Shown here piece by piece: positions 13,615-32,763 of a DNA stretch of 64,000 nucleotides. Made by a program: the position numbers and the translations under genes. Source of the stretch: an uncultured Chitinophagales bacterium (GTDB lineage: Bacteria; Bacteroidota; Bacteroidia; Chitinophagales; BACL12); the NCBI GenBank assembly GCA_964463165.1, contig CAYXBK010000016.1, positions 13,402 through 77,401 of the forward strand, in the 5' to 3' direction. The notes beneath the pieces are model-generated. The model saw only the letters and a program-made list of their open reading frames with translations. It made no database searches and was not told where the DNA came from. The first letter of the stretch is position 1. Each line of letters starts with the position of its first letter.

Positions 13615-13721
13615 AACAGTTCCAGCGTTTCAAGTGCTGTCTCTATTCTTAAATTACGATTTTTTTCGACGTGTTTTGGATGAATGAAGTATCAGTTTTG
13701 TCATGGGTGCCTCCTTCAGGA

Positions 13722-13901
13722 TTTGCATTTACACCCATTCGTGCATGCTTTAACCCCTGCCATTTGCGCCTGCTTACCGCATCAACAAAATAATCGGTTC
13801 CCCCTGAAGGTCTCCCCCAATTTTTTTTTTGACGCCGCATGCGCTCCCGGCTTGTCGGGGTCATCGCCCGAAAGGGTAATGCAAACAAAGGAAAACGAAC
13901 C
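13722..13901 (+). promoter_or_regulatory. Structured non-coding element, copy A (candidate RNA leader or ssDNA element)
   Basis: Alignable with copies at 21779 and 23576. It shares the helices TTTGCATT/AATGCAAA, CAACAAAATAAT/ATTTTTTTTTTG (10/12), CCCG/CGGG and CCC-GAAA-GGG. It ends at AAAGGAAAACGAACC-ATG. Confidence 0.65.
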
Positions 13902-14099
13902 ATGACAAACCAAACTGAAAAACAACACAAGAAAAAACCTGCGTTTTACATCTACACTCAAGATGCAGGAAAAAGTGAATATGCAGGTGCTGCATTTCGG
14001 CACAAGACCGGCACTGGATTTAATATCCTGATTGGCAAAGACAGTTTTGTCGCTTTTGAACCAAAAGGAAAATCCGCAACAACGGAGGAAAGCGCTTAG
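13902..14099 (+). CDS. Conserved 65-aa protein, copy A
   Basis: MTNQTEKQHKKKPAFYIYTQDAGKSEYAGAAFRHKTGTGFNILIGKDSFVAFEPKGKSATTEESA. It is 44/65 identical to copy C by hand alignment. An AGGA lies upstream of the ATG at 13902. The longer 13839 start would run into the conserved structured element. Confidence 0.65.
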   Translation: MTNQTEKQHKKKPAFYIYTQDAGKSEYAGAAFRHKTGTGFNILIGKDSFVAFEPKGKSATTEESA

Positions 14100-14130
14100 G
14101 CGCTTTCTTTCCATTATAAGGAGAATTATC

Positions 14131-14637
14131 ATGACAAGATTGTATGCACAACCTTACGATATATCTGCAAAAGGCTTTTATTTCGATTCAATCGAAGAAT
14201 ATAACCAAAAGGCATCCAAAAACTTTAATAAAATAGGCTTGCAGGTTGAGGAATACGAAATACAATTTATCTATGGAGAGAATATTGATGCAGAATTGTT
14301 TGAAGCCGCAGGTATTAATCAATCAAATATTGCTGATTTCTTTGACGCTTGCGATAATTGGAGTGATAACGAAAAATATAAAGTGATAATCGCTGTCGGC
14401 GAAGGCCATTATTCATTCGATTTTAAAATGGTTGAACCTGATGATTTTGATCTAGATATTTTTGAGATGGATACCATGCAAGAGCTTGCCGAACATTTCA
14501 CAAGTGAGGGCCTATTCGGTAATATTCCTGAATATTTGAAATACTACATAGACTATGACGCAATTGCGCTCGACCTATGTACTGATTACTTTGAAATTAC
14601 AATTGCAGGAAAACGTTTTATTTATCGTTGTTCCTAA
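14131..14637 (+). CDS. ardA: ArdA-like antirestriction protein (DNA mimic)
   Basis: 168 aa from the ATG at 14131, preceded by AAGGAG. The protein is very acidic. The C-terminal LFGNIPEYLKYYIDYDAIALDLCTDYFEITIAGKRFIY parallels the ArdA C-terminus (..VPxxLxxYIDYxAxGRDL....G.FEI). The size matches ArdA (~166 aa). Confidence 0.7.
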   Translation: MTRLYAQPYDISAKGFYFDSIEEYNQKASKNFNKIGLQVEEYEIQFIYGENIDAELFEAAGINQSNIADFFDACDNWSDNEKYKVIIAVGEGHYSFDFKMVEPDDFDLDIFEMDTMQELAEHFTSEGLFGNIPEYLKYYIDYDAIALDLCTDYFEITIAGKRFIYRCS

Positions 14638-14641
14638 ATGA

Positions 14642-14675
14642 ATATGCCGCCGTTTAAAACGGCGGCATATTTTTC
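14642..14675 (+). terminator. Rho-independent terminator after the ardA-like gene
   Basis: ATATGCCGCCGTTT / AAACGGCGGCATAT stem followed by TTTTT. A second weaker hairpin (GAGCGA...TCGCTC plus T8) lies near 14727-14760. Confidence 0.7.
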
Positions 14676-14949
14676 ATGCATATATCATCATTAAATATTT
14701 TAATGAAACTGCATTCAAAATTTGTGAGAGCGATTCTTTCGAGTCGCTCGCTTTTTTTTGAATTTCATCATACATCTGTGTGAATTTTTTTATCGCATCA
14801 TTTTATCATTCTTATTTGTGTTTAATAAAATCTTTTTTTCCACCACTCTTGTCAGAAATGATGCTAGATTGAAAACATGGGGGGCTTTCATAACGTGCGA
14901 TAACGTCATTGAATGGCTGCTAAGCAAATAGTAATAGGGGAATTTTAAA

Positions 14950-15282
14950 ATGAAAAACAATATCGAAGAATATTTTGAATACAACTACAACACAAACACT
15001 CTTGGTTATATCAATGAACCAGATGAAACTTATGAATGTAAATCAAAATATAAAACGAAACGTGCCAAGGTTGAAAATGAAAACCTTGCTCTCCCCGATG
15101 ACCACGTCAAACTTTTAACGCGAAAAGAAGCTGCCGAATATATCGGCATGTCGCCTGGCACGCTCGCCGTCTGGGCATCGACAAAAAGGTATGATCTGAA
15201 ACCCATCAAGGTCGGAACAAAAGCTGTTCGCTATTTCCGCTCTGAACTCGACAAGTTTCTGTTGTTGAAGAAAAAACCTTAA
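14950..15282 (+). CDS. Excisionase/AlpA-type helix-turn-helix DNA-binding protein
   Basis: LTRKEAAEYIGMSPGTLAVWASTKRYDLKPIKVGTKAVRYFRSELDKFL is the HTH_17/MerR-like excisionase-family pattern. Confidence 0.6.
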   Translation: MKNNIEEYFEYNYNTNTLGYINEPDETYECKSKYKTKRAKVENENLALPDDHVKLLTRKEAAEYIGMSPGTLAVWASTKRYDLKPIKVGTKAVRYFRSELDKFLLLKKKP

Positions 15283-15345
15283 ACACCTGATCTAAATTTT
15301 TAATACGGAAGATAACCAACAACAATTTTGTGGGAAGGAATTGCC

Positions 15346-16254
15346 ATGAACACAGAACAGGCAAATAGCATCGAATTATATCTGATTTTGAATAAACTTG
15401 GGATAAATCCCATACGACAAAATGGGTTTGATTATTGGTACTTATCACCTTTTCGCAATGAAAAGGAAGCGAGCTTCCATCTGAATTTAAAGAAAAACAT
15501 CTGGTATGATTTCGGGGAAGAAAAAGGTGGAACAGTAATTGATTTTGTTCAGGCTTATCTCGAAAAACAAGGTGAAGATCATACCGTTCAGGATGCCCTG
15601 CGGTGGCTTGATAACATGACACCGGCGCAGAGCGATCTTTTAAAATCGATACAGCTTGAATTAAGCGAAGAAGCGTTATCACTCTCACTGAAAGAGAAAG
15701 GTCCAATCGAGCATTTTTCATTGATCAAATATCTGCATGTTCGAGGCATTCCCTTCGGACTTGCAAGAAAATATTTAAAGCAAGTACTGGTGTGTAACCA
15801 CAAGACCGGAAAAAATTTTCATTGCCTTGCTTTCCGTAATGAAGAAGGTGGATATGAACTCCGCAATGAATTTTTTAAAAGCTGTCATCGGGAAAAAACA
15901 ATCTCTTTTTTTCGGGGCGCAAAAGTATTGTCGGGCGAAGTGCATGTCTTTGAAGGCTTCATGGATTTTCTCTCCGTCCTGGCCTTTAAAAATGTTGCAA
16001 GGCTTGATGGAGATGTCATCGTTTTAAATTCCACGAATTGCATTTCACATGCCATCGGTTACATGAATAACTACGGTTACGAAACCATGTATTCATGGAT
16101 GGATAATGATGCAACCGGAGAAAAAGCAACCACCACCCTCACTTGTTTTGCCAGAGGTCAACAAAACCTCACGCACAAGCCGATGAATAAATTGTATGCA
16201 TCTTATAAAGACGTGAATGACTGGCGCATGAAAGCCCTTGGTCTCTCTTTTTAA
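15346..16254 (+). CDS. Toprim-domain DNA primase of the Bacteroidota mobile-element type
   Basis: The N-terminal WYLSPFRNEKEASFHLNLKKNIWYDFGEEKGGTVIDF is a CHC2-like primase fold without the zinc Cys. Toprim Glu (VFEGFMDF) and DxD (WMDNDATGE) are present. The ATG at 15346 follows GGAAGGA. Confidence 0.7.
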   Translation: MNTEQANSIELYLILNKLGINPIRQNGFDYWYLSPFRNEKEASFHLNLKKNIWYDFGEEKGGTVIDFVQAYLEKQGEDHTVQDALRWLDNMTPAQSDLLKSIQLELSEEALSLSLKEKGPIEHFSLIKYLHVRGIPFGLARKYLKQVLVCNHKTGKNFHCLAFRNEEGGYELRNEFFKSCHREKTISFFRGAKVLSGEVHVFEGFMDFLSVLAFKNVARLDGDVIVLNSTNCISHAIGYMNNYGYETMYSWMDNDATGEKATTTLTCFARGQQNLTHKPMNKLYASYKDVNDWRMKALGLSF

Positions 16255-16272
16255 TCGAAAGGAAAAATAAAA

Positions 16273-16746
16273 ATGTCGGATGAAAACACACATGATTTAT
16301 CGGTCATCACTGAAGTGGATCTGATTTATCGCAATAAACAAAAAGCTTCTGACCGTCCTAAGATCAAATCCTCACGAGAGGTTTACGATCTGCTGCGTAA
16401 AACATGGGATGAAAATAAAATTGAATTGCTTGAACAATTTAAAATTGTTTTGCTTGATCGTAATAATTCATGTTTAGGTCTTGCGACGATTTCAAGCGGC
16501 GGAATGTCATCTTGTGTTGTTGATCTTAAAATTGCATTTGCAACGGCACTAAAAGCAAAAGCAACATCGATTATTCTGGCACACAACCACCCTTCGGGCA
16601 ATCTGCAGCAAAGTGCAGCAGATGAAAAATTGACGACGCAATTTGAAAACGCCGGGAAAATACTTGATCTACCTGTACTCGACCATCTGATTATTACTAA
16701 AGACGGCTATACCTCACTTGCTGATATCGGACTGATGAATAGATAA
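16273..16746 (+). CDS. radC: RadC-like JAB/MPN domain protein
   Basis: JAMM motif ILAHNHPSGN plus the downstream S..D pattern. The size and context are typical of mobile-element RadC. Confidence 0.85.
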   Translation: MSDENTHDLSVITEVDLIYRNKQKASDRPKIKSSREVYDLLRKTWDENKIELLEQFKIVLLDRNNSCLGLATISSGGMSSCVVDLKIAFATALKAKATSIILAHNHPSGNLQQSAADEKLTTQFENAGKILDLPVLDHLIITKDGYTSLADIGLMNR

Positions 16747-16774
16747 ATCACTTAGAAACAGAAGGAGAAAATAA

Positions 16775-17695
16775 ATGACAAACCAAATCGATGAAACCGC
16801 GACAATTGATGCACCAGTCACAGAAACAAAAACGGATATCTTTAACAAGATCACACAAAATATTATCGATGATCTTGAAAAGGGAGAACTGACATGGAGA
16901 AAACCATGGAACACGGATCATATGGCGTATGTCGGCCGGCCGCTTCGCTGGAATGATATACCTTATACCGGCATCAATATTCTTGTTCTATGGGCTGCTG
17001 CTGCCGAACTTAAATATAAATCGCCATACTGGATGACCTTTCGTCAAGCCTCCGACCTGAAAGCACATGTCCGCCCAGGTGAAAAGGCAGTGCATGTGGT
17101 TTACACAGACAAGGTGACGAAAGAAATAGAACAAGAAAACGGTGAGAAGGAGGAAAAGGAATTATCGTTCCTTAAAATTTATCCTGTATTCAATGCAGAT
17201 CAAATTGAGGGGTTGCCTCAGCATTATTATAAACCAGTCGAACAGAAAACCCGCAATCCTGATGAACGCATTCTCAATATGGAGGAATTCATCAAACAAA
17301 CGAAGGCGGAAATCGTCACTGGTCCCGATGCAGTATATCGACCGAAAAAAGATGTCATTGAAATCCCGCCTTTTGAAAGTTTTGATGACGGTGTGAGTTA
17401 TTATGCGACGCTCTCGCATGAGATCACCCACTGGACAAAACACAAGAGTCGTTTGAACCGGGATTTCAATCAGAAGCGTGTCGGCGATCAGGGGTATGCG
17501 ATCGAGGAACTTGTCGCGGAACTTGGCGCATGTTTTCTGGGCGCAGAGCTGGGTTTTGAACCCGTCCTGAAAGGTGATCATGCTGCATATATACAATCGT
17601 GGCTGAAGGTGCTTAAAAACGACAAAAAATGTATCTTCCAGGCTGCGTCTCATGCGCAGAAAGCTGTAGATTATTTGGGGAAACTACAGCGATAA
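16775..17695 (+). CDS. ardC: ArdC-like antirestriction protein (ssDNA-binding N-domain plus zincin metalloprotease)
   Basis: N-terminal GELTWRKPW ... IPYTGINILVLW (DUF1738-type) and a C-terminal HEITH (HExxH). A GAAGGAG precedes the ATG. Confidence 0.85.
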   Translation: MTNQIDETATIDAPVTETKTDIFNKITQNIIDDLEKGELTWRKPWNTDHMAYVGRPLRWNDIPYTGINILVLWAAAAELKYKSPYWMTFRQASDLKAHVRPGEKAVHVVYTDKVTKEIEQENGEKEEKELSFLKIYPVFNADQIEGLPQHYYKPVEQKTRNPDERILNMEEFIKQTKAEIVTGPDAVYRPKKDVIEIPPFESFDDGVSYYATLSHEITHWTKHKSRLNRDFNQKRVGDQGYAIEELVAELGACFLGAELGFEPVLKGDHAAYIQSWLKVLKNDKKCIFQAASHAQKAVDYLGKLQR

Positions 17696-17710
17696 TCCTG
17701 CGCTCGACTG

Positions 17711-17752
17711 GTATGCCCGTCAGGCTGTTTCACCTGACGGGCATACTTTTTT
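17711..17752 (+). terminator. Rho-independent terminator after ardC
   Basis: GTATGCCCGTCAGG / CCTGACGGGCATAC 14-bp stem followed by TTTTTT. Confidence 0.8.
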
Positions 17753-18177
17753 GTTAATTGGTACCATTAATGGTGATATTTTGAATTTTTTGTCACCATT
17801 TATAGGATATTTTCATATTAAATTTGGTCGTGTAATGGATTCAGCATAGCCTTGCGATATCACAGCGTAGAAATGTATATTCATTATGTAGAAATCAGGG
17901 TAAAAAAGCCCCGACTTAATAATTAAAATTTTTGTTAAAGTTCGCATAGCTTGGAATTTATGAAAAACTTTTTATCTTCGGTACGCCATTGGATGATACT
18001 TGGCCTAAACAACAAAATTTGGGCCATGTCTAAGTCTAAATATCAATACGTTGAACCCAATTATGCCCCAATGAAACGCGTTCCAACCGGTTATCAATCT
18101 GTTAACCAGATTAGTTTTTTATGCCATTTGAGCAACAATTTAAACTATTATTCGGTTTACCTATTAATATAAACGTC

Positions 18178-18765
18178 ATGATTAGTCAAAACCTTAATAC
18201 CATTCCCGAAGTCGATAGCGACTATAAAGAGTACATTCAATCACTTGCTGAAGGTAAAAAAGAGCCATTCCTAAATAGTGGCCCTGCTCATGCTTCTTAT
18301 GTATTTGCAACTTTATTTTCTAAGGCTCAAAATAATGGTATTATCAAAATTTACAATGGTGGTTTTAGAGGGGAAGTATCGAATGATGATTATTATCAAG
18401 AACAACTTTTCGATTTTTTATCGCGAGGTGGTACTTTGCAAATTTTATGCACTCAACCTTTAAGCAAGAATACTAATTTGTTTGAAGGGTTAAGATTTTA
18501 TGCTTTTCTTAATCCCAAATCTGTTGTTATTAAACAAACCGTTAAAAAAGTACTTGACCCGGTAACAAAAAAAGAAGCTCACTTTATGGTAGCTGATGAT
18601 TTAATGTATAGAATAGAAGAAGATATTATAAATTATACCGCTATATGTAGCTTTAATGATCCTGAAACAAGTATGTCAATATCTAATCTTTTCGATGTCA
18701 TTTTTAAATCCGAGGAAGCAACTCTTGTAGATATGGCTTTACCGAAAAAATTAGAAAAAGTTTAA
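18178..18765 (+). CDS. Hypothetical protein, possibly a degenerate PLD/HKD-like fold
   Basis: The ORF track gives 18121-18765; the ATG at 18178 (MISQNLN) is the more likely start. AHFMVADD ... CSFND faintly resembles an HKD motif lacking the Lys. Confidence 0.4.
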   Translation: MISQNLNTIPEVDSDYKEYIQSLAEGKKEPFLNSGPAHASYVFATLFSKAQNNGIIKIYNGGFRGEVSNDDYYQEQLFDFLSRGGTLQILCTQPLSKNTNLFEGLRFYAFLNPKSVVIKQTVKKVLDPVTKKEAHFMVADDLMYRIEEDIINYTAICSFNDPETSMSISNLFDVIFKSEEATLVDMALPKKLEKV

Positions 18766-18815
18766 TATACGTCTGCCCGAATTATACCATTACCCTTTTT
18801 TTTTAAACCTGACCC

Positions 18816-19886
18816 TTGCACGACTTTACCCATTTTGCTCATCTGATTGAGTTTATCGCCGCATTAAACGGCGCATATATTCTTTCAACAGAATTTGCCA
18901 AAAAAGTTAAAAAATTAACAAATTACGCCGGGTCTAAAGTAATTACAGAGCATAAATTAGTTAATATAAAATGGAAATCAGCACGAGGATTAATGTTTAA
19001 ATTGATTAATGGTGCGACAGAAGATTTGACTAAATTGTGTGAAGAATTTAATGATACTTGCAAGCAAATTAAATTAAGAATAGAGAGCGTTAGAAAAGAA
19101 TATATTGAAAATTCAACGAATTTTGAAGAATTGACCAATTTTAATATCTTTTGCTTTTTTGGCGCTTTTTATTCCGTAATTGTTTTAATCTTGATTGGTG
19201 CTGAATATAAATTTGACCAGGATTTTACTAGAGACTATTTCTTTTTATTTAATATTATAAGTTTTATAATAATTATCATTTTTAAATTTCGAGGATTTAA
19301 AGAGAAATATATTCATGTCCTTTGGCTGATAATTCCTCCGGCATTAATAACTGGTGTTCTAATGCTGTTCAATGTTTGGGAAAAAATTGGAATTTGCAAT
19401 ACAAACTGGTTGTATGTTGGCAACTGCATACTCGCATTAATCATTCCCACATGGCATTTTTTATTTTATATAATTAAATCCAAAAAAAGAATTGAAAAAA
19501 TAGATAACGATTTCCTCTTGGAAGTTCAAAATTGTAGCAGTCAATGCGATACATTTACAATAGCATTGAACAAAGCTCTGAAAGGAGAAAAGACTAAAGG
19601 TCAATCTCCCACTGATCTTGAAGAAAAAAGTGTTCCACTCATTGTCGTTGGTCGAATTTTATACATTGCCGCATCTGAAGAACAATGGAAAGTTTATTGG
19701 GAAAATGAAACACTTGGCACCTATTTTTCTACGAAGATTGATGCAATTAAATACTCAAGAGAAGAGGTTAGTAAACTTCAAGAAGGAAGTGTACTGCAAA
19801 TCAGAATAAATAATTCAGATGGGACTTTTGCGGTCGAATGGACCTACGGCATAGATGACTTTCCACCACTTATTGCAGAACAATAG
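18816..19886 (+). CDS. Multi-pass membrane protein with a soluble C-terminal domain
   Basis: 356-aa ORF with a TTG start, so the start is uncertain. The central ~110 aa hold 4-5 hydrophobic helices. The C-terminal KVYWENETLGTYFSTKIDAIKYSREEV...DGTFAVEW resembles a DUF2188-like module. Confidence 0.45.
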   Translation: MHDFTHFAHLIEFIAALNGAYILSTEFAKKVKKLTNYAGSKVITEHKLVNIKWKSARGLMFKLINGATEDLTKLCEEFNDTCKQIKLRIESVRKEYIENSTNFEELTNFNIFCFFGAFYSVIVLILIGAEYKFDQDFTRDYFFLFNIISFIIIIIFKFRGFKEKYIHVLWLIIPPALITGVLMLFNVWEKIGICNTNWLYVGNCILALIIPTWHFLFYIIKSKKRIEKIDNDFLLEVQNCSSQCDTFTIALNKALKGEKTKGQSPTDLEEKSVPLIVVGRILYIAASEEQWKVYWENETLGTYFSTKIDAIKYSREEVSKLQEGSVLQIRINNSDGTFAVEWTYGIDDFPPLIAEQ

Positions 19887-20114
19887 TGTTCTGAAGTAAG
19901 ATTAAAAGGTATCCGAATTAGTAATTCTTCATACAATCTTGCTGCTAGTTATAAATTAATAAACAACTTCTCAGTCAATTCTGTTTCTATTTATTTATTC
20001 GCCTATCTCAATAGTTATTTCTAACCGATTTATTCACAAATAGCGTTTGTAAGATTACTTTTAAAAGAGTAACTTTATTTGGAATATTTATTTAAAATAT
20101 TTAAATCATGAATT

Positions 20115-21719
20115 ATGAAGCAAATTCTACTCTCCTGCATTATTTGTATGATTGTTTTTTCGTATGAAGCTTTACCACAAGCACCCCCAATCAGATGGGG
20201 AAATGCTATTGGAGGTACCAACTTGGAAAGTTGTGGAAGCATGATTATTACTGCTGATAATCGTTTTATTTTAGTTGGTTCCTCACATTCACAAAATGGA
20301 GAATTATCCGGTGTTACGAGTTATGGGCAGGATGATGTTATCCTTGTCAAAATAAAAAATAATGGAGCACTTCAATGGATAAAAAAATTTGGCGGTAAAA
20401 AAATTGATACTGGTCAAGATATTGTTCAGACTTCCGATGGAAATTTTGTTTTTGTGGGCATCACTTACTCCAATAATTTCGATGTTTCCGGCCTTCACGG
20501 TTTAAATGATGCCTGGCTTGTAAAAGTAAATTCCGCTACCCAAAATATTATGTGGCAAAAGTGCATTGGGGGCAGTGGAGCTGATCAGGGATTATCTCTC
20601 GCATTGACGCCTGACAACGGATTTTTAATTGGCGGATTATCTCTGTCAACCGATGGTGATTTATCTAGTGCAGGCAACCATGGTCAGTCAGATTATTGGG
20701 TCATAAAAACAGATAGTTCAGGAAATATTCAATGGTCTAAATGCTATGGTGGCAGCGAACAGGAAACCTGCAAAAGCGTTTATATTACATCTGATGGTGG
20801 ATATTTGATTTTTGGAGATACACATTCTGCGGATGGTGATGTTATTGGTAAAATTGGCGGCATTGATAACGATGATTTGTTTCTTTTAAAGCTTAATTCA
20901 ATTGGCGATATAGAATGGAGCCGGTGTATCGGTGGAAGTGACAATGATTTTGCAGGTGGCATCATGCAGGATTTAAATGATAATATCCTTTTAACATCCT
21001 ATTCAAGTTCTACCGACAATGAATTTGTTGGCAACCTCGGAGGTGCAACAGGATACGATGCATTTGTAATAAAATTAGATCCAGATGGAAATACAATTTG
21101 GTCGAAACCTTTGGGTGGATATGAAGATGAAATTTGTTTTTCTGAAGCAATTCAAAATTCGGATTCAACTTATATTATTCCTTGTCAATCTGGCTCAAAT
21201 GATGAATTCGTTTCAGGTGCTCATTATGGATGGGATTTCTGGATTGTTGAATTGAGTTTAGATGGCGATATTAATTGGCAATATTGTTATGGAGGTTCTT
21301 TTCAAGAGGGACCTCAAACATGCGCCATGGATTTTGATGGACGCCCAACATTTGCAGGTTATACCCGTTCCTCTGATGGGGATGTCACAGGCTACAAAGG
21401 TAACAATGCATACAATGATATTTGGACGATTCAATTAGATCTAATATCATTAAAAGAAAATGCAAATATTCAACTTAACACCATTACTCCGACAATCTTT
21501 CCAAATCCATTCAATGATCAATTAAAAATTAACTATTACAGTGAAAGTGAAACTCCTGCGAAACTATTTATTTATGATCTCTTTGGAAAATTACTTTACG
21601 CTTCAGAATTGTTAAAAGGTAATTCAAGTATTGATGTTTCTATGTTGTCAAAAGGAATTTATCAGGTAAAAATTTTCGATGATAACAAACAATATATTTT
21701 CAAGATTATTAAATCATGA
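20115..21719 (+). CDS. Secreted beta-propeller-repeat protein with a T9SS C-terminal sorting domain
   Basis: A signal peptide is followed by ~8 repeats of the (W.K.(Y/I)GG...D.G..+..T.DGG+++.G.S.S.DGD) type. The C-terminal ~80 aa (FPNPFNDQLKINY ... GIYQVKIFDDNKQYIFKIIK) are typical of Por/T9SS CTDs. Confidence 0.8.
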   Translation: MKQILLSCIICMIVFSYEALPQAPPIRWGNAIGGTNLESCGSMIITADNRFILVGSSHSQNGELSGVTSYGQDDVILVKIKNNGALQWIKKFGGKKIDTGQDIVQTSDGNFVFVGITYSNNFDVSGLHGLNDAWLVKVNSATQNIMWQKCIGGSGADQGLSLALTPDNGFLIGGLSLSTDGDLSSAGNHGQSDYWVIKTDSSGNIQWSKCYGGSEQETCKSVYITSDGGYLIFGDTHSADGDVIGKIGGIDNDDLFLLKLNSIGDIEWSRCIGGSDNDFAGGIMQDLNDNILLTSYSSSTDNEFVGNLGGATGYDAFVIKLDPDGNTIWSKPLGGYEDEICFSEAIQNSDSTYIIPCQSGSNDEFVSGAHYGWDFWIVELSLDGDINWQYCYGGSFQEGPQTCAMDFDGRPTFAGYTRSSDGDVTGYKGNNAYNDIWTIQLDLISLKENANIQLNTITPTIFPNPFNDQLKINYYSESETPAKLFIYDLFGKLLYASELLKGNSSIDVSMLSKGIYQVKIFDDNKQYIFKIIKS

Positions 21720-21778
21720 TGAACAAAGTAGAGCCCATTATGCTTATCGATTGAAAGTATATCATTGCAACTTCTACA

Positions 21779-21957
21779 TTTGCATTTAAACCCATTCGTG
21801 CAGCCTTTTCTCCCTGCCATCCGTGGATGCTTCCAGCTTCAACAAGAAAATCGGTTCCCCCTGAAGGTTTCCCCCAATTTTCTTGTTGACGCCGCATCCA
21901 CTCCTGGCCGGTCTGGGCATAGCCCGAACGGGTAATGCAAACAAAGGAGAATGAACC
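21779..21957 (+). promoter_or_regulatory. Structured non-coding element, copy B
   Basis: Same architecture as copy A. The 12-bp helix CAACAAGAAAAT (21840-21851) / ATTTTCTTGTTG (21877-21888) is perfect. A CCTGG/CTGGG hairpin is present. The element ends AAAGGAGAATGAACC-ATG. Confidence 0.65.
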
Positions 21958-22155
21958 ATGCTAAACAAAACCGAAAACAACGACAAAGTGGAATTGATGT
22001 ATATTCTTTTCAAATACGAAAAAGGTGTAAAAACATATGCTGGTGCTGTTTTACGCCAAAATATTGGTTCCGGCGTAAGCGTCGTAGTTGGCGATCAGGC
22101 TTATCTGGCTTTCGTGCCTGGCTCTGACATACTTGCTGAATTTGAGCGGGCTTAA
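21958..22155 (+). CDS. Conserved 65-aa protein, copy B (divergent)
   Basis: MLNKTENNDKVELMYILFKYEKGVKTYAGAVLRQNIGSGVSVVVGDQAYLAFVPGSDILAEFERA. It has the same length and keeps the YAGA, R...G.G, G-D and AF.P positions. Confidence 0.6.
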   Translation: MLNKTENNDKVELMYILFKYEKGVKTYAGAVLRQNIGSGVSVVVGDQAYLAFVPGSDILAEFERA

Positions 22156-22202
22156 TAATAAATCGCTAAATTCAACATATAGTGGATAAGTGCGAATACC
22201 CT

Positions 22203-22234
22203 CGCCTCATGAAATTCGATAATTTCATGAGGCG
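22203..22234 (+). terminator. Perfect 14-bp hairpin between small ORF B and its cargo gene (terminator or attenuator candidate)
   Basis: CGCCTCATGAAATT-cgat-AATTTCATGAGGCG followed by AAATTTTG. The U-tract is weak. Confidence 0.4.
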
Positions 22235-22250
22235 AAATTTTGTACTCAAT

Positions 22251-23513
22251 ATGATTAAGGTTGAAACAAATATTAAAAAGAATTTACTCGATGCCTGGAA
22301 AAAGGAATGTTTTTACTTGTCGTCTGAATTTTCGCTGCATAAACAATTTGAGAGGTCTGTTGTCGATTCAGTTTATAAAACTTTTTCAGATTATTTTGGG
22401 ATAAATTATTTTAATATTGAAGGTGGTGAACAAAATATTTCAGCAAAAGAAAATTGGATATTCTATTTGCTTGCTAGTTCAAATCGCCGCGCTTGCATGG
22501 CGGCATTATTTGAAATTACAAACACGCTTCTATACTTACAAACATTGTCCAGATCAATACAGAAGAAATTCAAATCCGTTTTTAATGATCCTCAACAGTT
22601 CAGGGATTTATTTTTTGAATTATATATTTTCCGATTGATGGAATTCAACAAAATATCTCATTTAAAAAAGCCCAAAGAAAATGGACAGGAACTGGATGTC
22701 GTTTGTACAATTAATAATCAGGATTATTTGGGTGAATGTCTGAAAGTCTATGCACCTAATTTGGTTTTGCTGCATAATGAGAAATATTTCATGACATTGC
22801 TCACCTTGAAACTGTCAAGCTTAAGTAAAGGTTTTGGCATGATCGGAATGGTTAAATTCAGCAATCCGAATTCCGAGAATGTTAAAAAAGTTTTTACGTC
22901 CAAACTGGAGAAATTCGTGAAAGGATTTAATGCTCAAAAATTTATCAATATAGGTTATTACGATAAGGATGATGACGGCGAGTTTTCTGTCATAGACTAT
23001 TCGGTGGCAAACAATCTTGAAGCTGAAATGGATTTTTCAAATTACCATGTCATGTTTAAATACATCCCGCCTTTTAGTGTGACCCAAGGTATTTTCAATC
23101 ATTATCGGATTGAACTAAAAGGCGGGCTTGTTATCCCCCAATATAAAATCATCCAGAAATTATTTAGCACTTTAAAAGTAAAAAGCGAACAGCACAAAAA
23201 TTCAGCCCATGCAAACAAAATTTATTTTATCGATAGTGAAGCTATTCCAGATTTTAATCCCGCCATTTTTATGGATGGGTCAGTGTTCCCTGAAGAAGAA
23301 ATTCAGGACTTCATAAATGAGTTTTCTGATAAAGAGATCTTCTGTTTCATTTTGCGGAATTATACTTCACATATCCCTAAAGTTACCATTAAAGTTTTAG
23401 GTAAAAATATTGATGATAAAATCAAACATAGACTGGAAAATTTGAAAACCAATTTTGATTTCACGATTATCAAACCACGCATGAAAAGTAATTTTTTAAT
23501 CCTCCCGAATTAA
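22251..23513 (+). CDS. Hypothetical protein, cargo of module B
   Basis: The ORF track gives 22182-23513 with a GTG start that would run through the hairpin. The ATG at 22251 (MIKVETN) lies just after the hairpin. This gives 420 aa with no confident motif. Confidence 0.5.
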   Translation: MIKVETNIKKNLLDAWKKECFYLSSEFSLHKQFERSVVDSVYKTFSDYFGINYFNIEGGEQNISAKENWIFYLLASSNRRACMAALFEITNTLLYLQTLSRSIQKKFKSVFNDPQQFRDLFFELYIFRLMEFNKISHLKKPKENGQELDVVCTINNQDYLGECLKVYAPNLVLLHNEKYFMTLLTLKLSSLSKGFGMIGMVKFSNPNSENVKKVFTSKLEKFVKGFNAQKFINIGYYDKDDDGEFSVIDYSVANNLEAEMDFSNYHVMFKYIPPFSVTQGIFNHYRIELKGGLVIPQYKIIQKLFSTLKVKSEQHKNSAHANKIYFIDSEAIPDFNPAIFMDGSVFPEEEIQDFINEFSDKEIFCFILRNYTSHIPKVTIKVLGKNIDDKIKHRLENLKTNFDFTIIKPRMKSNFLILPN

Positions 23514-23575
23514 TTGCATGGTATTTATTTGCTCTGATTTTTTCAAACAGTTTGTACGCTTCACCTCCTTTCCCG

Positions 23576-23754
23576 TTTGCATTTGAACCCATTCGTGCAG
23601 CCTTTTACGCCTGCCATCCGCGGCTGCTTCTCGCATCAACAAGAAAATCGGCTCCCCCTTAAGGTTCCCCCCAATTTTCTTGTTGACGCTGCATCCGCTC
23701 CTAGCGGGCTAGGGCATCCCCCGAAAGGGTAATGCAAACAAAGGAGAACAAACC
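23576..23754 (+). promoter_or_regulatory. Structured non-coding element, copy C
   Basis: Same architecture as copies A and B: a perfect 12-bp helix, a CCTAG/CTAGG hairpin and CCC-GAAA-GGG. It ends AAAGGAGAACAAACC-ATG. Confidence 0.65.
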
Positions 23755-23952: not shown

Positions 23953-24080
23953 GCGCCCTCTTTCATCTTAACACACAGTTGATAATTTTTGCACAAATGA
24001 TGCAGCGAGCCTCATAAGTTTGTAAATTATATGGTGCGATTACTGAAAAAAAGAAAAATAACACGAACCATGTATAATCT

Positions 24081-24653
24081 ATGTCTGATTTATTAAAAAA
24101 AGACAAGGAGTTTAAAGAAGCGATAGGGGCATTTATTATCGCGTTTTCCGAACTTGAATTCGGGCTGATGTTTCTATGTTCGATGACAGAATTCGACTTC
24201 AGGAAAAAAGATGATTATATAATTAAATATATGACCTTCTCATTTGAGCAAAAAGTAAAGCATCTCACAACATTTATAGATGAACACCTTCATGAACTCA
24301 AACTCATTTGGGATAAACTTAAAAATGAAATGGGAACACTTAATCGTGAACGAAGATTTTTGGCTCATGGCTTTATGCAATATTCTCTCCCAAGAGAAAG
24401 TATTACAACACACATACGAGAAAATGGAAAAGTGACGACAAAAAAACACTCTGTTGAAGAAATCGAAGATTTAACTGACCGCCTGCATCATTTAAATACC
24501 GGTGAACATGGTATCAATGGTGAATTCAACACCCTATTTACAAAGACACGGATTGATAAATGGAATAATCTTGTGAACGACGAAAATAAAATCATTTACA
24601 GGGTTAATAGTAAAATAATATCAAAATGGAAAGGCAAAAACAAGAATGACTAA
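24081..24653 (+). CDS. Hypothetical protein with a possible HEPN-like R-x4-H motif, cargo of module C
   Basis: 190-aa ORF predicted to be helical. LNRERRFLAHGF contains R-x4-H. The N-terminal AFSELEFGL helix is typical of small HEPN-like proteins. Weak inference. Confidence 0.45.
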   Translation: MSDLLKKDKEFKEAIGAFIIAFSELEFGLMFLCSMTEFDFRKKDDYIIKYMTFSFEQKVKHLTTFIDEHLHELKLIWDKLKNEMGTLNRERRFLAHGFMQYSLPRESITTHIRENGKVTTKKHSVEEIEDLTDRLHHLNTGEHGINGEFNTLFTKTRIDKWNNLVNDENKIIYRVNSKIISKWKGKNKND

Positions 24654-26161: not shown

Positions 26162-26548
26162 TCAAGGCTTAATCTCAATACTTATTTCAGCCACGACAGG
26201 TTGGGATACTTGATTTGTTGCTAAATACCTCTCATCCTGTTCTCTAACCCGTTTCGGTCCATGGTTTTCAAGGGCTTCGTAGAGGGTTTCCAGAAGGTAG
26301 CCTTTCAGGGTTGCCGTATGTGTGGTAAAAGTCAGGATGATAGTATTTTCTTCGGGCAGAAACTCTACCGATATTAGGTAAGCATAGCTCAAAAACAGCC
26401 GCTTGCCATCTTTTTGGATAAAGCAGATGTTTCGGACATGAGCAGTGGGGCTATGCATAGTGATGCTGCTATCATTATCGCTGTTAATGTCTTCCTTGTT
26501 TTTGCTGGCTTCATCGTATTTCAGCTTCAGCTTATTTTCATCGCTCAT
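26162..26548 (-). CDS. Hypothetical protein downstream of the relaxase
   Basis: 128-aa ORF whose ATG overlaps the relaxase stop by 11 nt. Confidence 0.45.
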   Translation of the reverse strand: MSDENKLKLKYDEASKNKEDINSDNDSSITMHSPTAHVRNICFIQKDGKRLFLSYAYLISVEFLPEENTIILTFTTHTATLKGYLLETLYEALENHGPKRVREQDERYLATNQVSQPVVAEISIEIKP

Positions 26549-30439: not shown

Positions 30440-31930
30440 TTAAGGAATGAATTTTTGATCGAAACGTGTTTTCAGGTAGTTATTGGTTAATGATGTTTCG
30501 CCCTGAAAATGAACATAAGCTTCAACTTTAAAATCGTTTAATCCGCCGCCGGTTTTCAGTTGGGAAAATTCTTCAGGATGAACCTCTTTATCCGGCTTTA
30601 ATGACTTTGATTTTGAGGATGAAAATTGACCGGCAACTGTTGTTGAACTTCCAATGTCAAGCCGGAAATCATCCCCAATTAATTCAGAAGCATAATTGTT
30701 TGTTTCAAGATCGGCATTGGCGTGAAATATCTTTGTCGCCAGGGTGCCGAGAAAACTTTTCACATGATGATCGCCTTTCCTCCCGCCCATATTGGCGTAA
30801 TAGTTCGGTAGGTTCTGGGTGATATAAACCGTCGCCAAACGGCTGCCGCGAGCTGTTGCCTGATATTCGGCATCGTGCTCATGCAGGAAATGCTGGGCTT
30901 CATCCGCCCACAAAAAGATAGGTTTTGTACCGGGTTCAATTTTTCGTTTTTCCATCGCCCGTTGCCAGATGTATTTAAACATGATCTGGCTATCACGGCC
31001 GATTTTATGATGGAGTTTTATTGGCAAATTGATCAGGATGATTTTACCATTCAGGCATTTTTCCGGTGAAAATGTTGATGTCCGGCTGCAGAATAAATCG
31101 TATACAGGATTGCGCAGCAAGCGGAATAAAAAACCGGAAAATGAAAATTCAATAATTGATCTTGTTCTTTCGGCAAGGTTTTGAAAATTGCCATTAAAAA
31201 ATTCATCCACAAACTTGAATATACGCCCGTCATGAACCTCTTTTAAAAATGCCTGCTCGTGGAGTCCGTCTTCCTTTAATTTTTCTAAATACTCGGGTTT
31301 TTGTTTAAATGACCATTCATCAAACTGCTGATTGACATTTTTCGCGGCAAGTTCAAAGGCTTCCCGAAACGCGGTTTTCTTTTGTTCATTATCTTGAACC
31401 ACCCCTGCCTTCGGCAGGGTCTGCACGATATCGTACATCTGCTGCACAGAGATTTTCTGATAGGCGAGCCTGCATAGATCAATCACGTTAAATATGAGCA
31501 TATCGAGCGCCTTTTCCCAAAAGGGATCATCGCCATGGCCGCCTTCTTTTGCTTCACTGGCATTCAGAACGGTTTTTAAAACTTCAACAATGTTTTCAGT
31601 AATAGCTTGTTTGTCTGGGCTTTTTTTGATCTCGTAGTCGAAGAAATTAAAGCAACGTTTTTTACCTGGCTCCACGATAATTAAATCTTTTCTGCGTGAG
31701 GTAATATCGCAGTATTTAATCCAGGTGTCTTTTTCGTCGGGTTTTACTGTCAGGACGAGGCCGCCGAAGCCTGCCTTTAGGTATTTCAAGGCGAGCATAC
31801 GCCCTGAACCTGTTGTTTTACCGGAGCCGATACCGCCGAAGATTTGAACACCTTCCACGGCATTGCGGACTGTCCAATTCATTTTACCAAATTGGATTAG
31901 CGGGGTATCGAGGTAATCGGGATCTGCCAT
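30440..31930 (-). CDS. Type IV coupling protein-like ATPase (TraG/TraD/VirD4 family, FtsK-HerA superfamily)
   Basis: Walker A GGIGSGKTTGSG, Walker B IFLWADEAQHF, and RGSRLATVYITQNL (T4CP-like arginine/Q motif). The ORF track starts at a GTG at 31960; the ATG at 31930 (MADPDYL) is preferred. No N-terminal TM helices. Confidence 0.7.
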   Translation of the reverse strand: MADPDYLDTPLIQFGKMNWTVRNAVEGVQIFGGIGSGKTTGSGRMLALKYLKAGFGGLVLTVKPDEKDTWIKYCDITSRRKDLIIVEPGKKRCFNFFDYEIKKSPDKQAITENIVEVLKTVLNASEAKEGGHGDDPFWEKALDMLIFNVIDLCRLAYQKISVQQMYDIVQTLPKAGVVQDNEQKKTAFREAFELAAKNVNQQFDEWSFKQKPEYLEKLKEDGLHEQAFLKEVHDGRIFKFVDEFFNGNFQNLAERTRSIIEFSFSGFLFRLLRNPVYDLFCSRTSTFSPEKCLNGKIILINLPIKLHHKIGRDSQIMFKYIWQRAMEKRKIEPGTKPIFLWADEAQHFLHEHDAEYQATARGSRLATVYITQNLPNYYANMGGRKGDHHVKSFLGTLATKIFHANADLETNNYASELIGDDFRLDIGSSTTVAGQFSSSKSKSLKPDKEVHPEEFSQLKTGGGLNDFKVEAYVHFQGETSLTNNYLKTRFDQKFIP

Positions 31931-31956
31931 GAAAAAGAAAAGATATTTTACCGTTT

Positions 31957-32763
31957 TCACTCAATCCCTAACTGAGCAAAAGCCAGGTCTTCAGCACTTT
32001 CTTCTGTCTTGATCGCTGATGAATTCTCCATCATTGTTCGTGCAGAGGTTGGAAAACGCAAAGTTTTAGGCTCAAAATCACCTGTGCCCCACCAGATGAA
32101 TCGGTTTTTAATTTTACAAAGCCCCATCATAATATATAATCCCTCTTTTCCCTCCACTTTGTAACCAATACTACTTTCCCTATGAAGATTTACTTTTATG
32201 CTCGCATCCGCAAGATTTATTTTTTCGATTTGTGGACTATCCGTTTCGAAAGAAATTTCCGAATTATTGCTTTTTGAAATTGCTAAAATGGTCAGGCCAC
32301 TTTGTACCAAATCTGTAACAACACAATATTCCTTTTTCCACTTACCATTTTTCAATAATGTTTTTAATATCTCTCCGATTTTTGCCTTGTTACTTATTCG
32401 GGTTGTAGTGCAATCTGCGGCATTGAAGAAAATTGAATCCTTGTTTGCAAATTTTACTTCTAAGGTAGCCTTAGCCACCGGAATGCCTCTTGCATTCAAG
32501 CTTCCCTTACTCAATAAATTAACTTCAACACCGCTTTCAGATTGAAATTCCTTGTGATCCTTCCATTGATCGGCTGTGATTTTAATAACATCGCCAGAAA
32601 ATTCAGGAAAATCGTCTTTTAACTTCCCTATATGGAGAAAAATGTTTCCATCCAGCAGTCCGTAGTCTCCTAATTCCACAGCGGCACCTGGCTCCCAATT
32701 GGCATAAAAAACCTCAAATTGTTTTTTGATTTCATCAGTGTAAAGATTGGCAAGATTGCTCAT
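31957..32763 (-). CDS. Hypothetical beta-rich protein
   Basis: 268-aa ORF immediately upstream of the T4CP-like gene. No motif recognised. Confidence 0.45.
   Translation of the reverse strand: MSNLANLYTDEIKKQFEVFYANWEPGAAVELGDYGLLDGNIFLHIGKLKDDFPEFSGDVIKITADQWKDHKEFQSESGVEVNLLSKGSLNARGIPVAKATLEVKFANKDSIFFNAADCTTTRISNKAKIGEILKTLLKNGKWKKEYCVVTDLVQSGLTILAISKSNNSEISFETDSPQIEKINLADASIKVNLHRESSIGYKVEGKEGLYIMMGLCKIKNRFIWWGTGDFEPKTLRFPTSARTMMENSSAIKTEESAEDLAFAQLGIE

Follow-up and report, generated by a model that had tools for sequence, protein, structure and literature searches.

A family of long hairpin elements in front of anti-restriction genes, with a possible role as single-stranded DNA promoters or primers

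Single-stranded DNA promoters are known from IncF and IncI1 plasmids as Frpo/ssi (ssp1) and ssp2/ssp3. Those that have been mapped are long GC-rich stem-loops located just upstream of ardA, ardB/klcA, ssb and methylase operons, and the roles documented for Frpo/ssp are early transcription, supply of primer RNA and a roadblock to replication; the roadblock at the ssp2 hairpin of F is independent of transcription. Single-strand origins (sso) are orientation-specific hairpins of ~200 nt that carry conserved loop motifs and function only as folded single-stranded DNA (ssDNA). The sso1 of ICEBs1 is such an origin of ~200 bp, found just behind the relaxase gene in the first-transferred DNA. Two structured RNAs, the radC and STAXI motifs, reportedly occur often in a particular class of integrative conjugative elements. 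The radC motif was reported from Proteobacteria; STAXI, reported from Enterobacteriales, is a pseudoknot unit that occurs as two or more, most often three, tandem repeats, and its discoverers also weighed an ssDNA function.

Here we analyse an element present in three copies (A, B and C) in a stretch of 64,000 nt of uncultured bacterial DNA, referred to below as the window (Table 1). It belongs to a large, apparently undescribed family that stands in front of anti-restriction and 'establishment' genes of conjugative elements in several phyla; no prior description was found.

Table 1. Features of the window discussed in the text, with their strands
Feature	Position	Strand	Remarks
Copy A, full hairpin	13710..13893	+	anti-RBS CCTCCTT 13710-13716 to ribosome-binding site (RBS) AAAGGAA 13887-13893
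Apical core of copy A	13792..13824	+	AATCGGTTCCCCC-TGAA-GGTCTCCCCCAATTTT
Small ORF A, 65 aa	13902..14099	+	member of the small protein family behind elements
ArdA-like gene after small ORF A	14131..14637	+	Pfam ArdA match weak and under the curated threshold
Establishment block	14950..17695	+	co-oriented with the elements; HTH_17 excisionase-type, DnaG-like primase, RadC, ArdC
Copy B, full hairpin	21771..21949	+	anti-RBS CTTCT 21771-21775 to RBS AAAGGAG 21943-21949
Apical core of copy B	21849..21881	+	
Small ORF B, 65 aa	21958..22155	+	product 29% identical to that of A
443-aa ORF headed by copy B module	22182..23513	+	uncharacterised
Copy C, full hairpin	23565..23746	+	anti-RBS CTCCTTT 23565-23571 to RBS AAAGGAG 23740-23746
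Apical core of copy C	23646..23678	+	
Small ORF C, 65 aa	23755..23952	+	product 68% identical to that of A
190-aa ORF headed by copy C module	24081..24653	+	uncharacterised
TrwC-family relaxase-helicase	26538..29282	-	strand opposite the elements, convergent here
Type IV coupling protein	30440..31960	-	same - strand operon as the relaxase

Copies in the window and relatives elsewhere

A first-pass annotation of this DNA had listed three + strand copies that align over their full length. Its coordinates were right, and mean column identity in a full-length alignment of the three is 88% over 231 columns. The element is ~185 nt long in the window, and each copy is oriented with its own downstream + strand gene. 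Repeat analysis of the window returns a single repeat family whose three members are these copies, and a core search allowing up to 2 mismatches found no fourth copy in the window. The copies are dispersed rather than tandem, with spacings of 1.8 and 8 kb. The annotation had also held the element to be at least as conserved as the reading frame behind it, and this agrees with gapped pairwise identities of 81-84% for the element versus 63-75% for the small ORF that follows; the 100 nt upstream of the element and the next gene are at background level (55-62%). No reading frame is conserved, as had been claimed: among 120 family members every frame is open in at most 31%, and the core length is not a multiple of 3 in 37/120. 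The GC content of the element, counted from the sequences, is about 52%, as compared with ~36% in the surrounding DNA. An RBS block close to the ATG was likewise correctly noted, and reads AAAGGA(G/A) 8 nt upstream. Copies B and C start only about 50 nt past the stop of the preceding gene, and the nearest gene upstream of copy A is on the other strand. The ArdA-like gene of the copy A module is called as 168 aa in related contigs, and the radC of the window (16273-16746) has no copy of the element in front of it.

The first-pass annotation had suggested a search for further homologues and an analysis of covariation. A scan for the apical core finds the element on >120 metagenome contigs, and a separate scan finds it in 11 genomes labelled Bacteroidota, Verrucomicrobiota, Acidobacteriota and Proteobacteria. 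Family members always lie directly upstream of a gene, and in every copy the RBS stands 5-9 nt before the start codon, inside the basal helix. The genes headed in this way encode an uncharacterised small protein of ~70 aa (its family follows the element in 57 members), ArdC, ArdA-like proteins, ParB-like proteins (ParB_N), DUF2958 and DUF6573, and orphan methylases are found nearby. Such genes are typical leading-region cargo. The mobile-element context with anti-restriction, radC and primase-type genes that had been pointed out is supported; the element is structured, non-coding and specific to mobile elements. The relaxase gene is on the strand opposite the element in 21/21 cases, comprising TrwC-family relaxases (18 loci and the window) and MobA/MobL relaxases (2 loci). 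In the common layout, the element diverges from the relaxase across a spacer of 150-900 nt.

The hairpin and its favoured folding strand

Covariation across the family supports a single long imperfect hairpin, which runs beyond the 5' limit drawn at first. The fold of the window copies departs far from that of dinucleotide shuffles, with z between -6 and -7 in B and C and between -2 and -4 in A. In an alignment of 64 sequences from the largest subfamily (A4), 52 of the 80 pairs are changed on both sides, paired cells amount to 78% versus 33-48% when partners are slid, and 0/500 shuffles come up to the observed value on any measure; because family members are mutually related, these counts and the mismatch counts below are not independent events. 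The window's own subfamily behaves in the same way. The basal helix of the hairpin is formed by a 5' block, CTCC(TT), and the (AA)GGAG of the RBS. It is conserved, and outside the RBS its flanks covary, both in A4 (helix 2) and in another alignment, A5 (helix 3), where 6/9 pairs are changed on both sides.

The five-helix fold proposed earlier is retained in part. Its helices 1 (TTTGCATT/AATGCAAA) and 2 (12 bp) hold, and the rest does not as written. Helix 3 (GCAGCC/GGCTGC) is 71% paired in a 20-sequence alignment from several phyla, versus 89% for a competing long-range helix on the same bases that has 4/7 pairs changed on both sides. Hairpin 4 consists mainly of G.U pairs; an alternative partner for its TGGC, 96% paired, is a conserved GCCA in the 5' arm. 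Hairpin 5 (CCC-GAAA-GGG) can be drawn but is invariant, and so carries no covariation signal; a model of the element as one rod pairs this segment with the conserved 5' block CCnTTCGTGCA, which is otherwise unexplained.

The apical core of the family is AATCGGYTCCCCC...CCCCCAATTTT, a direct repeat of two GGT(N1-2)CCCCC units. In copy A the core on the - strand is AAAATTGGGGG..GGGGGAACCGATT, closed by a T.G wobble, and in every member the closing pair is T.G on the - strand versus C.A on the + strand. The spacing between half-sites ranges from 4 to >30 nt across the family, and apex insertions, of up to about 27 nt, are self-complementary; thus, the apex is folded and not read as duplex.

The types of mismatch point to selection for folding on the template (-) strand. 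Among isolated stem mismatches in the 120 family members, again related sequences, A.C outnumbers G.T by 96 to 26 (60 versus 12 sequences). With fixed sets of pairs, the numbers are 343 and 200 in one analysis and 96 and 37 for the window's subfamily, and the ratios in the window copies are 7:1, 4:1 and 6:1. An A.C mismatch on the + strand is a wobble on the - strand only. Most other + strand mismatches are pyrimidine.pyrimidine, a type commoner there than purine.purine; on the - strand they turn into the mismatches of highest stability, G.A, G.G and G.T. Over the whole family, then, the wobble argument once made for + strand folding is reversed. Recurrent + strand U.G does occur at several pairs (for example, columns 33/355, 44/342 and 78/316 of A4, in 17 sequences each). 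Composition-matched z-scores with DNA parameters are better on the - strand for copies A and B; those with RNA parameters do not separate the strands for B and C, and thus the raw energy advantage of the - strand is partly mere G-richness. Selection for folding and cytosine deamination in ssDNA would both point to the - strand as the single-stranded one.

Proposed function and rival readings

The reading that we favour, and to which we give about even chances, is that the element is a ssDNA promoter or primer hairpin, functionally like Frpo/ssp, yet forming a new family by sequence, whose G-tract apex is conserved. An ssDNA element had been the fallback of the first-pass annotation, and is the reading that the evidence favours. 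The acting form would be the folded ssDNA of the strand that templates the gene behind, working in cis. This - strand would be the transferred strand, single-stranded in the recipient after conjugation, and the hairpin of ~185-230 nt would snap back on it as it comes in. The stem and the G-tract apex (AAAATTGGGGG..ACC..GGGGGARCCGATT) may be recognised by RNA polymerase or primase. Transcription or priming would then start within the hairpin, and the RNA would enter the small gene and after it the anti-restriction and establishment genes, with early 'zygotic' expression as the outcome. A further role of the RNA may be to prime second-strand synthesis or to set its pace, which has been shown for Frpo/ssp of F and IncI plasmids. 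Conversion to double-stranded DNA would abolish the signal, and a read-through mRNA would hold the full hairpin with its RBS locked in the basal helix, so that the genes would be silent in the established host.

Since the leading genes are opposite the relaxase, the model needs the relaxase-sense strand as the transferred strand, and with a divergent layout the element would enter last, not first. ICEBs1, in which sso1 stands behind a relaxase gene in first-transferred DNA, is a precedent for such an arrangement. Scans for promoters gave little: a sigma-70 scan showed neither enrichment nor any site inside the elements, and the Bacteroidota -33/-7 consensus was found only at the edge of copy B, in hosts whose promoter rules are poorly known. 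Inspection of both arms in the two main subfamilies gave only partial promoter-box matches, which counts against an Frpo/ssp-like signal. In favour of the ssDNA reading, no conventional promoter is common to the three window copies, the Bacteroidota -7 box being present in B only and the gene nearest upstream of A lying on the other strand. We regard it as a tentative extension, rather doubtful at this stage, that the family represents a cross-phylum class of ssDNA expression or priming signals in which the near-invariant G-tract apex, not -35/-10 mimicry, is the recognition element and the RBS lock limits expression to entry. If so, the apex would be recognised by a host enzyme that is conserved universally, or else by a factor that the element itself encodes, and conjugative or mobilisable elements in Bacteroidota, Acidobacteriota, Verrucomicrobiota and Proteobacteria would switch on anti-restriction and establishment genes from the incoming strand.

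A serious rival, although a somewhat improbable one, is the sense mRNA leader preferred in the first-pass annotation. In this case, a + strand RNA hairpin would repress translation by sequestering the RBS in its basal helix, with relief by RNase III-type cleavage or by protein or RNA binding to the C-rich apical loops. The conserved anti-RBS/RBS helix with its covarying flanks fits this reading, as do the recurrent U.G pairs, the GAAA and UUCG-type loops that can be drawn in + strand sub-hairpins and the highly significant + strand fold of B and C (z about -6.8), although a + strand fold is automatic as the complement of a - strand fold. Co-transcription is plausible for B and C, given their short distance from the preceding stop, but the window copies share no upstream promoter. 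Mismatch types, about 3:1 for the - strand, argue against it, as does the universally conserved core position that would be a C.A mismatch in the RNA sense. Furthermore, a hairpin of -50 to -110 kcal/mol at the RBS would in effect stay closed unless it had a dedicated opener.

The strand evidence would serve equally well for an element that acts only in second-strand synthesis, be it as a single-strand origin, as a primosome site or as a roadblock, and has no promoter role. The folded transferred strand would then stall the replisome or draw in RNA polymerase or primase. This reading has precedents in the sso (including that of ICEBs1 just downstream of the relaxase gene) and in the transcription-independent roadblock of F ssp2, and a relaxase-sense T-strand from the divergent layout would have the element at its 3' end, which is where the sso lies with respect to the dso in most rolling-circle plasmids. 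We consider it unlikely: it leaves unexplained why every copy ends exactly at an RBS 5-9 nt before a start codon, with this RBS forming part of the basal helix, and why one element has multiple copies with a gene module behind each.

A cis-encoded antisense RNA of the FinP or Sok kind, in which a structured - strand transcript over the RBS represses translation of establishment genes, would account for both the - strand wobble preference and the RBS overlap, and small ORF C contains, on the - strand, a relaxed -7-like box (23788). However, copies A and B have no conserved - strand promoter, the inspected flanks have no T-run or terminator after the hairpin on that strand, and a rod of about 200 nt with no kissing-loop design is unlike known antisense regulators, making this reading quite improbable. 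Least credible is a duplex-DNA site, acting either as the operator of a regulator that the element encodes or in recombination that shuffles gene modules, which would suit the directly repeated core and the look of the three window modules as duplicated cassettes but not the variable half-site spacing with self-complementary inserts, and would give about 70 further bp of covarying stem no role.

Comparison with known systems

A search of the whole window against Rfam 15 gave no match at gathering score, nor did one with 14 diverse family loci, and 13000-24500 had no match to Rfam models at E<=10. These searches included the radC (RF01754) and STAXI (RF01728) covariance models, to either of which the element had been thought possibly to belong; both are rejected. 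The radC motif is similar as an upstream element tied to radC and other DNA-manipulating genes in mobile DNA. STAXI resembles the new family in lying near single-strand-binding, topoisomerase, anti-restriction and integrase genes, but comprises tandem pseudoknots rather than a single long hairpin in dispersed copies.

Leaders that sequester the RBS (translational attenuators, thermometers) share the pairing of an anti-RBS with the RBS in a conserved helix. Here, in contrast, a stem of about 70 bp is much too stable to open reversibly, and the strand asymmetry is against the RNA sense.

The sso types (ssoA/ssoU/ssoT and ICEBs1 sso1) are comparable in being ~200 nt long and orientation-specific and in having a loop motif that is conserved while the stem varies, and ICEBs1 sso1 adjoins the relaxase and oriT in an integrative element. 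They are not coupled to a start codon, whereas the new family has several copies, each heading a gene. A blastn search (word size 11) of three family members against the 72,556 plasmids of PLSDB, which we take to include IncF and IncI plasmids, gave no match, and thus no sequence similarity to the sso types or to Frpo/ssi/ssp in that collection.

The likeness to Frpo/ssp is one of architecture: a long GC-rich imperfect hairpin directly upstream of a leading-region or establishment operon, in several copies per element, and with folding on the strand that templates the downstream genes, the same strand favoured here. Frpo/ssp are defined by reconstituted -35/-10 boxes, and none is recognisable in the new family. 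Leading genes are co-oriented with the relaxase operon in F and R388, but always opposite in the new family, which is further distinguished from Frpo/ssp by its near-invariant C/G-tract apex, its occurrence in several phyla and the inclusion of the RBS in the basal helix.

The element and its family

The three copies reported by the first-pass annotation lie where it had placed them and align end to end, with a mean column identity of 88%. They are the sole long dispersed repeat family of the window, and a search of the window for the core (the C-tract direct repeat at the hairpin tip), with two mismatches allowed, found no further copy. Gapped identity between copies is 81-84% in the element and 63-75% in the 65-codon ORF after it; the 100 nt upstream and the next gene are at 55-62%, the aligner's background, and the small ORF products of copies A and B share only 29% identity. 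Thus, within each module, conservation is highest in the non-coding part. Its GC content is about 52% (counted from the sequence), against about 36% for host DNA. The view that the element is non-coding also held: in 120 relatives among the matches listed, any one frame is open in at most 31%, and the core length is not a multiple of three in a third, which together rule out coding potential. The original observation was essentially right.

At gathering score, a search of the whole window with Rfam 15 (4227 models) gave no match to the element; the matches, all outside it, are two tRNAs and a DUF805b hairpin. The latter is barely above threshold (36.3 versus a gathering score of 35.6 bits) and lies within a gap of 626 nt on the upstream side of the operon for orf268, the coupling protein and the relaxase; this gap may hold an oriT or regulatory sequences. 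Searching window positions 13000-24500 at E<=10 returned nothing related, and 14 diverse family loci gave tRNAs only. Identity with the radC or STAXI RNA motifs had been raised as an option; neither model nor either anatomy fits, STAXI being defined as tandem pseudoknots from Enterobacteriales and the radC motif being reported from Proteobacteria. A literature search found no description of the element, and as far as we could find the family is undescribed.

The small ORF is very rare (5 clusters in 5.8 billion proteins), and as a route to relatives it was abandoned because these clusters and 6 short contigs were too few for covariation. Metagenome contigs were scanned for exact matches to AATCGGNTCCCCC-N(5-35)-CCCCCAATTTT (23 specified bases), which gave at least 120 stretches of DNA. 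A second scan, of one genome per species with the 3' lower-stem block as the query, gave 13 loci: 11 true members and two chance matches (L016 and L020). The metagenome-assembled genomes concerned are labeled Verrucomicrobiae, Chthoniobacteraceae, Ca. Acidoferrum, Bryobacterales, Agriterribacter, Bacteroidota, Alpha- and other Proteobacteria and, in one case, Patescibacteria; because of the nature of such labels and horizontal transfer, the host assignments are only approximate. The C-tract core is present in 9 of the 11 loci found through the lower stem, and the arms of core-selected loci among the matches listed fall into at least three markedly different families. Invariance of the core in the metagenome set is built into the query, whereas its occurrence on unrelated arms is not. 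The lower-stem and core searches validate each other, and the family is real and widespread.

Two loci, in Bryobacterales (L017) and Verrucomicrobiae (L021), keep the lower stem and the ribosome-binding site (RBS) and have no C-tract apex; the former has a different upper stem and the latter a short hairpin. Thus, the element is modular, and the apex can be lost. Three further loci (L039, L045 and L139), with the 5' arm and core intact and the 3' arm broken by unrelated sequence, are truncated or disrupted elements. Scans of viral contigs with three patterns gave 0, 0 and 7 matches, the core being in none of the 7, and blastn of three different members against 72,556 PLSDB plasmid records found no match.

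Fold and folding strand

For copies A-C, on both strands and with RNA or DNA parameters, the minimum-energy fold is one long imperfect hairpin, or rod, instead of the multi-branch, five-helix fold proposed in the first-pass annotation. The hairpin extends 5' past the limit set there and includes a block (anti-RBS) that pairs with the AAAGGA(G/A) RBS, 8 nt ahead of each ATG. The rod also accounts for the conserved 5' block CCnTTCGTGCA by giving it a pairing partner, GCCCGAAAGGG. At the apex, GGT(N1-2)CCCCC occurs twice as a direct repeat between AAAAT... and ...ATTTT. Insertions of up to about 27 nt are confined to the gap between the two repeats and are self-complementary; thus, the apex is a small variable hairpin on a conserved internal loop, which is C-rich on the + strand and G-rich on the - strand.

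Both models were scored by the same tool on 20 sequences of the window's subfamily, drawn from several phyla. The rod has 76 pairs, with 80.5% paired versus 39-44% in slid controls, and both sides have changed in 22 pairs. The closing helix and the 12-bp helix of the earlier model survive as parts of the rod. Its third helix, GCAGCC/GGCTGC, was rejected: it is 71% paired, against 89% for a competing long-range helix on the same 3' bases, in which four of seven pairs are compensatory. The hairpin said to change in sequence while staying paired is unsupported, with G.U pairs predominating, as is the CCC-GAAA-GGG hairpin, which is invariant in this alignment and hence gives no covariation signal.

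In the largest subfamily (64 sequences), the structure tested was the consensus fold mapped onto the alignment. Of its 80 pairs, 52 have changed in both partners; paired cells amount to 78.2% (33-48% in slid controls), and the covariation score is 0.169 (at most 0.075 in controls). On each of five measures, the observed value was reached by none of 500 shuffles. In the basal anti-RBS/RBS helix, the flanks outside the RBS covary, for example CTCCTTCGTTT/AAACGAAGGAG, GTCTCC/GGAGAC and TTCTCCTT/AAGGAGAA. The mapped fold superseded two other procedures: RNAalifold on the raw MAFFT alignment, which gave only 21-26 pairs because indels shift the arms out of register, and a core-anchored ungapped register, which a common bulge disrupts about 3 pairs out.

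The minimum free energy is lower on the - strand in 120 of 122 members among the matches listed; this raw difference was dropped as support, since z-scores show that part of the gap is G-richness. With RNA parameters, composition-matched z-scores make copies B and C equally exceptional on both strands, and with DNA parameters the - and + strand values are -4.1 versus -1.5 for copy A and -7.3 versus -3.9 for copy B. Mismatches can be compared without an energy model, by aligning the 5' arm to the reverse complement of the 3' arm with all mismatches scored alike; the core was excluded, and a mismatch was counted only if two or more Watson-Crick pairs flanked it on either side. Among the matches listed, isolated mismatches are A.C in 96 cases and G.T in 26 (binomial 1e-10; 60 versus 12 sequences), the sequences being related and the counts therefore not independent events; pyrimidine.pyrimidine mismatches number 129 versus 57 purine.purine. 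On the - strand, these + strand mismatches become G.T, G.A and G.G, the most stable mismatches. A fixed pair set gives A.C 343 versus G.T 200 (44 versus 9 sequences), and in the window's subfamily 96 versus 37 (18 of 20 sequences), with 7:1, 4:1 and 6:1 in the window copies. In every member, the conserved pair that closes the core reads T.G on the - strand and C.A on the + strand.

Strand-symmetric mutation without selection would make the A.C and G.T classes equal. The excess of A.C thus implies that the - strand is under selection to fold or, alternatively, has undergone an excess of C-to-T and A-to-G change. Such an excess marks a strand that is single-stranded for part of the time; the bias from transcription-associated deamination would run the opposite way. 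On both accounts, it is the - strand, from which the downstream genes are templated, that occurs and folds in single-stranded form. Against this bias, U.G recurs on the + strand at a few positions. The first-pass annotation favored an RNA leader on the + strand, a strand choice that the evidence does not favor. The main alternative is such a leader in the sense mRNA with its RBS locked in the fold. We regard it as unlikely: it accounts for the basal helix and the + strand z-scores, but the + strand fold is an automatic by-product of the - strand fold, and the mismatch asymmetry and the C.A pair at the core are left unexplained.

Neighboring genes and transfer

Nearly every complete copy among the matches listed has a start codon within 5-11 nt of the RBS. 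This exact coupling is unexplained if the folded strand is a single-strand origin (sso) or roadblock with no promoter function, a reading that we consider improbable. The window copies head three transcription units of a co-oriented + strand block, which contains a small ORF and an ArdA-like gene; HTH_17, DnaG-like primase, RadC and ArdC genes; and further unknown genes. Strong terminator-like hairpins of the intrinsic type after the ArdA-like and ArdC genes split the block into separate units; across 13.3-24.7 kb, terminator-like sites number 24 versus 8.2 in shuffles (about 3x).

The commonest gene after the element among the matches listed encodes a protein of ~65-80 aa, headed by 57 copies and including the window ORFs. 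Its motifs are PSHIAY..WTRIGSAW..GFNIQL..PLDGRI, to which the window variants KPAFYI..AGAAFRHKTGTGFNILIG are joined through intermediate forms. It belongs to no Pfam family, and the PDB contains no solved relative; one of 25 members has a faint DUF736 match (E=0.035). A second small family (~86 aa; MSKPAHKIRxGxLQVTIWRN..WYSV..DSL..DDLL.MAKLLDLA.TWI), without a match in a Pfam search, comes first after the element in L029, L053, L060, L084, L090, L130, L131, L135 and L143. Other first genes encode ArdC, ArdA-like, ParB_N, DUF2958 and DUF6573 proteins, and orphan methylase, RadC and integrase genes occur near the element in family loci.

In the window, the + strand block faces a convergent operon on the - strand, which encodes a TrwC-family relaxase as well as a coupling protein. 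The element and the TrwC-family relaxase gene are on opposite strands in 18/18 loci as well as in the window, leaving out L079, which has only a weak helicase-domain match, on the same strand. In 13 of the TrwC loci, the element diverges from the relaxase start with a spacer of <1 kb, and in two MobA/MobL-relaxase loci it is likewise on the opposite strand. The leading genes of F and R388 point the same way as the relaxase operon and are not opposed to it. In two loci, a gene for a P4-type tyrosine integrase separates the relaxase gene from the element (L131, confirmed by Pfam; L146, inferred from the N-terminus), indicating an element end or a second insertion inside the usual spacer.

Candidate oriT regions are the 150-900-nt relaxase-element spacers of L036, L136 and L137 and two stretches of the window. 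A nick-site search of 14 relaxase-element spacers found common k-mers at noise level. One candidate motif, GGACA(G/C)TTGGGTGCG, was rejected as evidence because it occurs in just 4-6 loci and the window lacks it. On the relaxase-sense strand it reads GCACCCAA(C/G)TGTCC, follows a small hairpin in the spacers of L099, L143, L096 and L146, and resembles the R388 TrwC nick region.

No T4SS genes were seen at the window's mobile element, and no integrase was recognised within the window. A two-component system (histidine kinase and response regulator) suggests host DNA at 36.6-38.2 kb, and the right end of the mobile element is probably near 33-35 kb. Thus, the element may be mobilisable rather than self-transmissible. 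A T9SS sorting-domain protein and Bacteroidota relatives suggest a Bacteroidota host. Left of the mobile-element block, a stretch with TIR+TPR, DUF4209/DUF7380 and Fic/DOC genes may be a defence or cargo island.

Coordinates of features in the window and in selected family loci
Feature	Location	Position	Strand
TIR+TPR gene	window	777-2297	-
DUF4209/DUF7380 gene	window	3868-5730	+
Fic/DOC gene	window	9747-10931	+
Copy A	window	13710-13893	+
Anti-RBS block of copy A, CCTCCTT	window	13710-13716	
Small ORF after copy A	window	13902-14099	+
Terminator-like hairpin after ArdA-like gene	window	14728-14749	+
DnaG-like primase gene	window	15328-16254	+
Terminator-like hairpin after ArdC gene	window	17710-17747	+
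Copy B	window	21771-21949	+
Anti-RBS block of copy B, CTTCT	window	21771-21775	
Small ORF after copy B	window	21958-22155	+
Copy C	window	23565-23746	+
Anti-RBS block of copy C, CTCCTTT	window	23565-23571	
Small ORF after copy C	window	23755-23952	+
Mobile-element stretch with relaxase and coupling protein	window	24887-34883	-
Candidate oriT stretch	window	32764-33389	
DUF805b RNA match	window	32781-32816	-
Candidate oriT stretch	window	34884-35082	
Two-component system	window	36662-38176	+
Element without C-tract apex	L017	around 2027	
Element without C-tract apex	L021	around 3642	-
P4-type integrase gene	L131	7720-8946	+
P4-type integrase gene	L146	7631-8992	-

Proposed function and comparison with known systems

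Transcription of single-stranded DNA (ssDNA) lets incoming plasmids express anti-defence genes ahead of host attack; to our knowledge, it is known experimentally so far only in IncF/IncI plasmids of enterobacteria. Like the ssDNA promoters of F and IncI1, the element is a long GC-rich hairpin directly before anti-restriction/establishment operons, is present in several copies per mobile element, folds on the template strand and has no conventional promoter common to the window copies. Scans for sigma-70 and Bacteroidota promoters found nothing common to the copies: -35/-10 boxes were not recognised, and a Bacteroidota -7 box is found at copy B only. The upstream neighbor of copy A is on the other strand.

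Given these shared properties, we propose by analogy the same kind of function. The folded - strand would be an ssDNA promoter, allowing establishment genes to be expressed while the DNA is still single-stranded; once the DNA is duplex, the basal helix with the RBS would silence read-through mRNA. A cis-antisense RNA would account for the - strand wobble but comes without a conserved promoter or terminator, and we give it little credence. A duplex-DNA site, for an operator or for recombination, is very improbable: the self-complementary spacing of variable length and the covarying stem of about 70 bp both contradict it.

The ssDNA-promoter model predicts that the relaxase-sense strand is transferred. 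With the window's layout, the mob operon would enter first and the ard block next, pointing back toward oriT, with the incoming strand as template; ICEBs1 offers a precedent, its sso1 being directly behind the relaxase gene, downstream of oriT. With the divergent layout, the element would be at the 3' end of the transferred strand, which matches where the sso lies with respect to the dso in most rolling-circle plasmids, and one primer could copy the whole strand, the same RNA doubling as message. The F/IncI1 ssDNA promoters are active only until the complementary strand is made; they can be a source of primer RNA, and one of them stalls synthesis of the second strand.

In one study, the IncF/IncI ssDNA promoters worked poorly in a distant host, and it was suggested that distant sigma factors do not recognise them. 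If the ssDNA-promoter reading is true, the element shows how broad-host-range establishment could be achieved, with a very conserved recognition motif, different from known ssDNA promoters, across soil and gut phyla, and the transferred strand and its reader become directly testable in non-model conjugative elements. If it is instead an RNA, it would be a large new cis-regulatory class specific to mobile elements. The element would also provide a sequence tag for the establishment/anti-defence regions of uncultured mobile elements, including its most frequent cargo, two families of small proteins that are uncharacterised.

The proposal is weakened by the lack of recognisable -35/-10 boxes, by an orientation opposed to the relaxase operon (unlike the leading genes of F and R388), by a nick-site search that yielded neither a site nor a direction of transfer, and by the near-invariant apex, for which Frpo-type promoters offer no counterpart. 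Although sequence-level tests of membership placed the element with neither ssDNA promoters nor single-strand origins, and although its conserved apex, phyletic breadth and orientation relative to the relaxase set it apart from them, it is in kind closest to these two classes.
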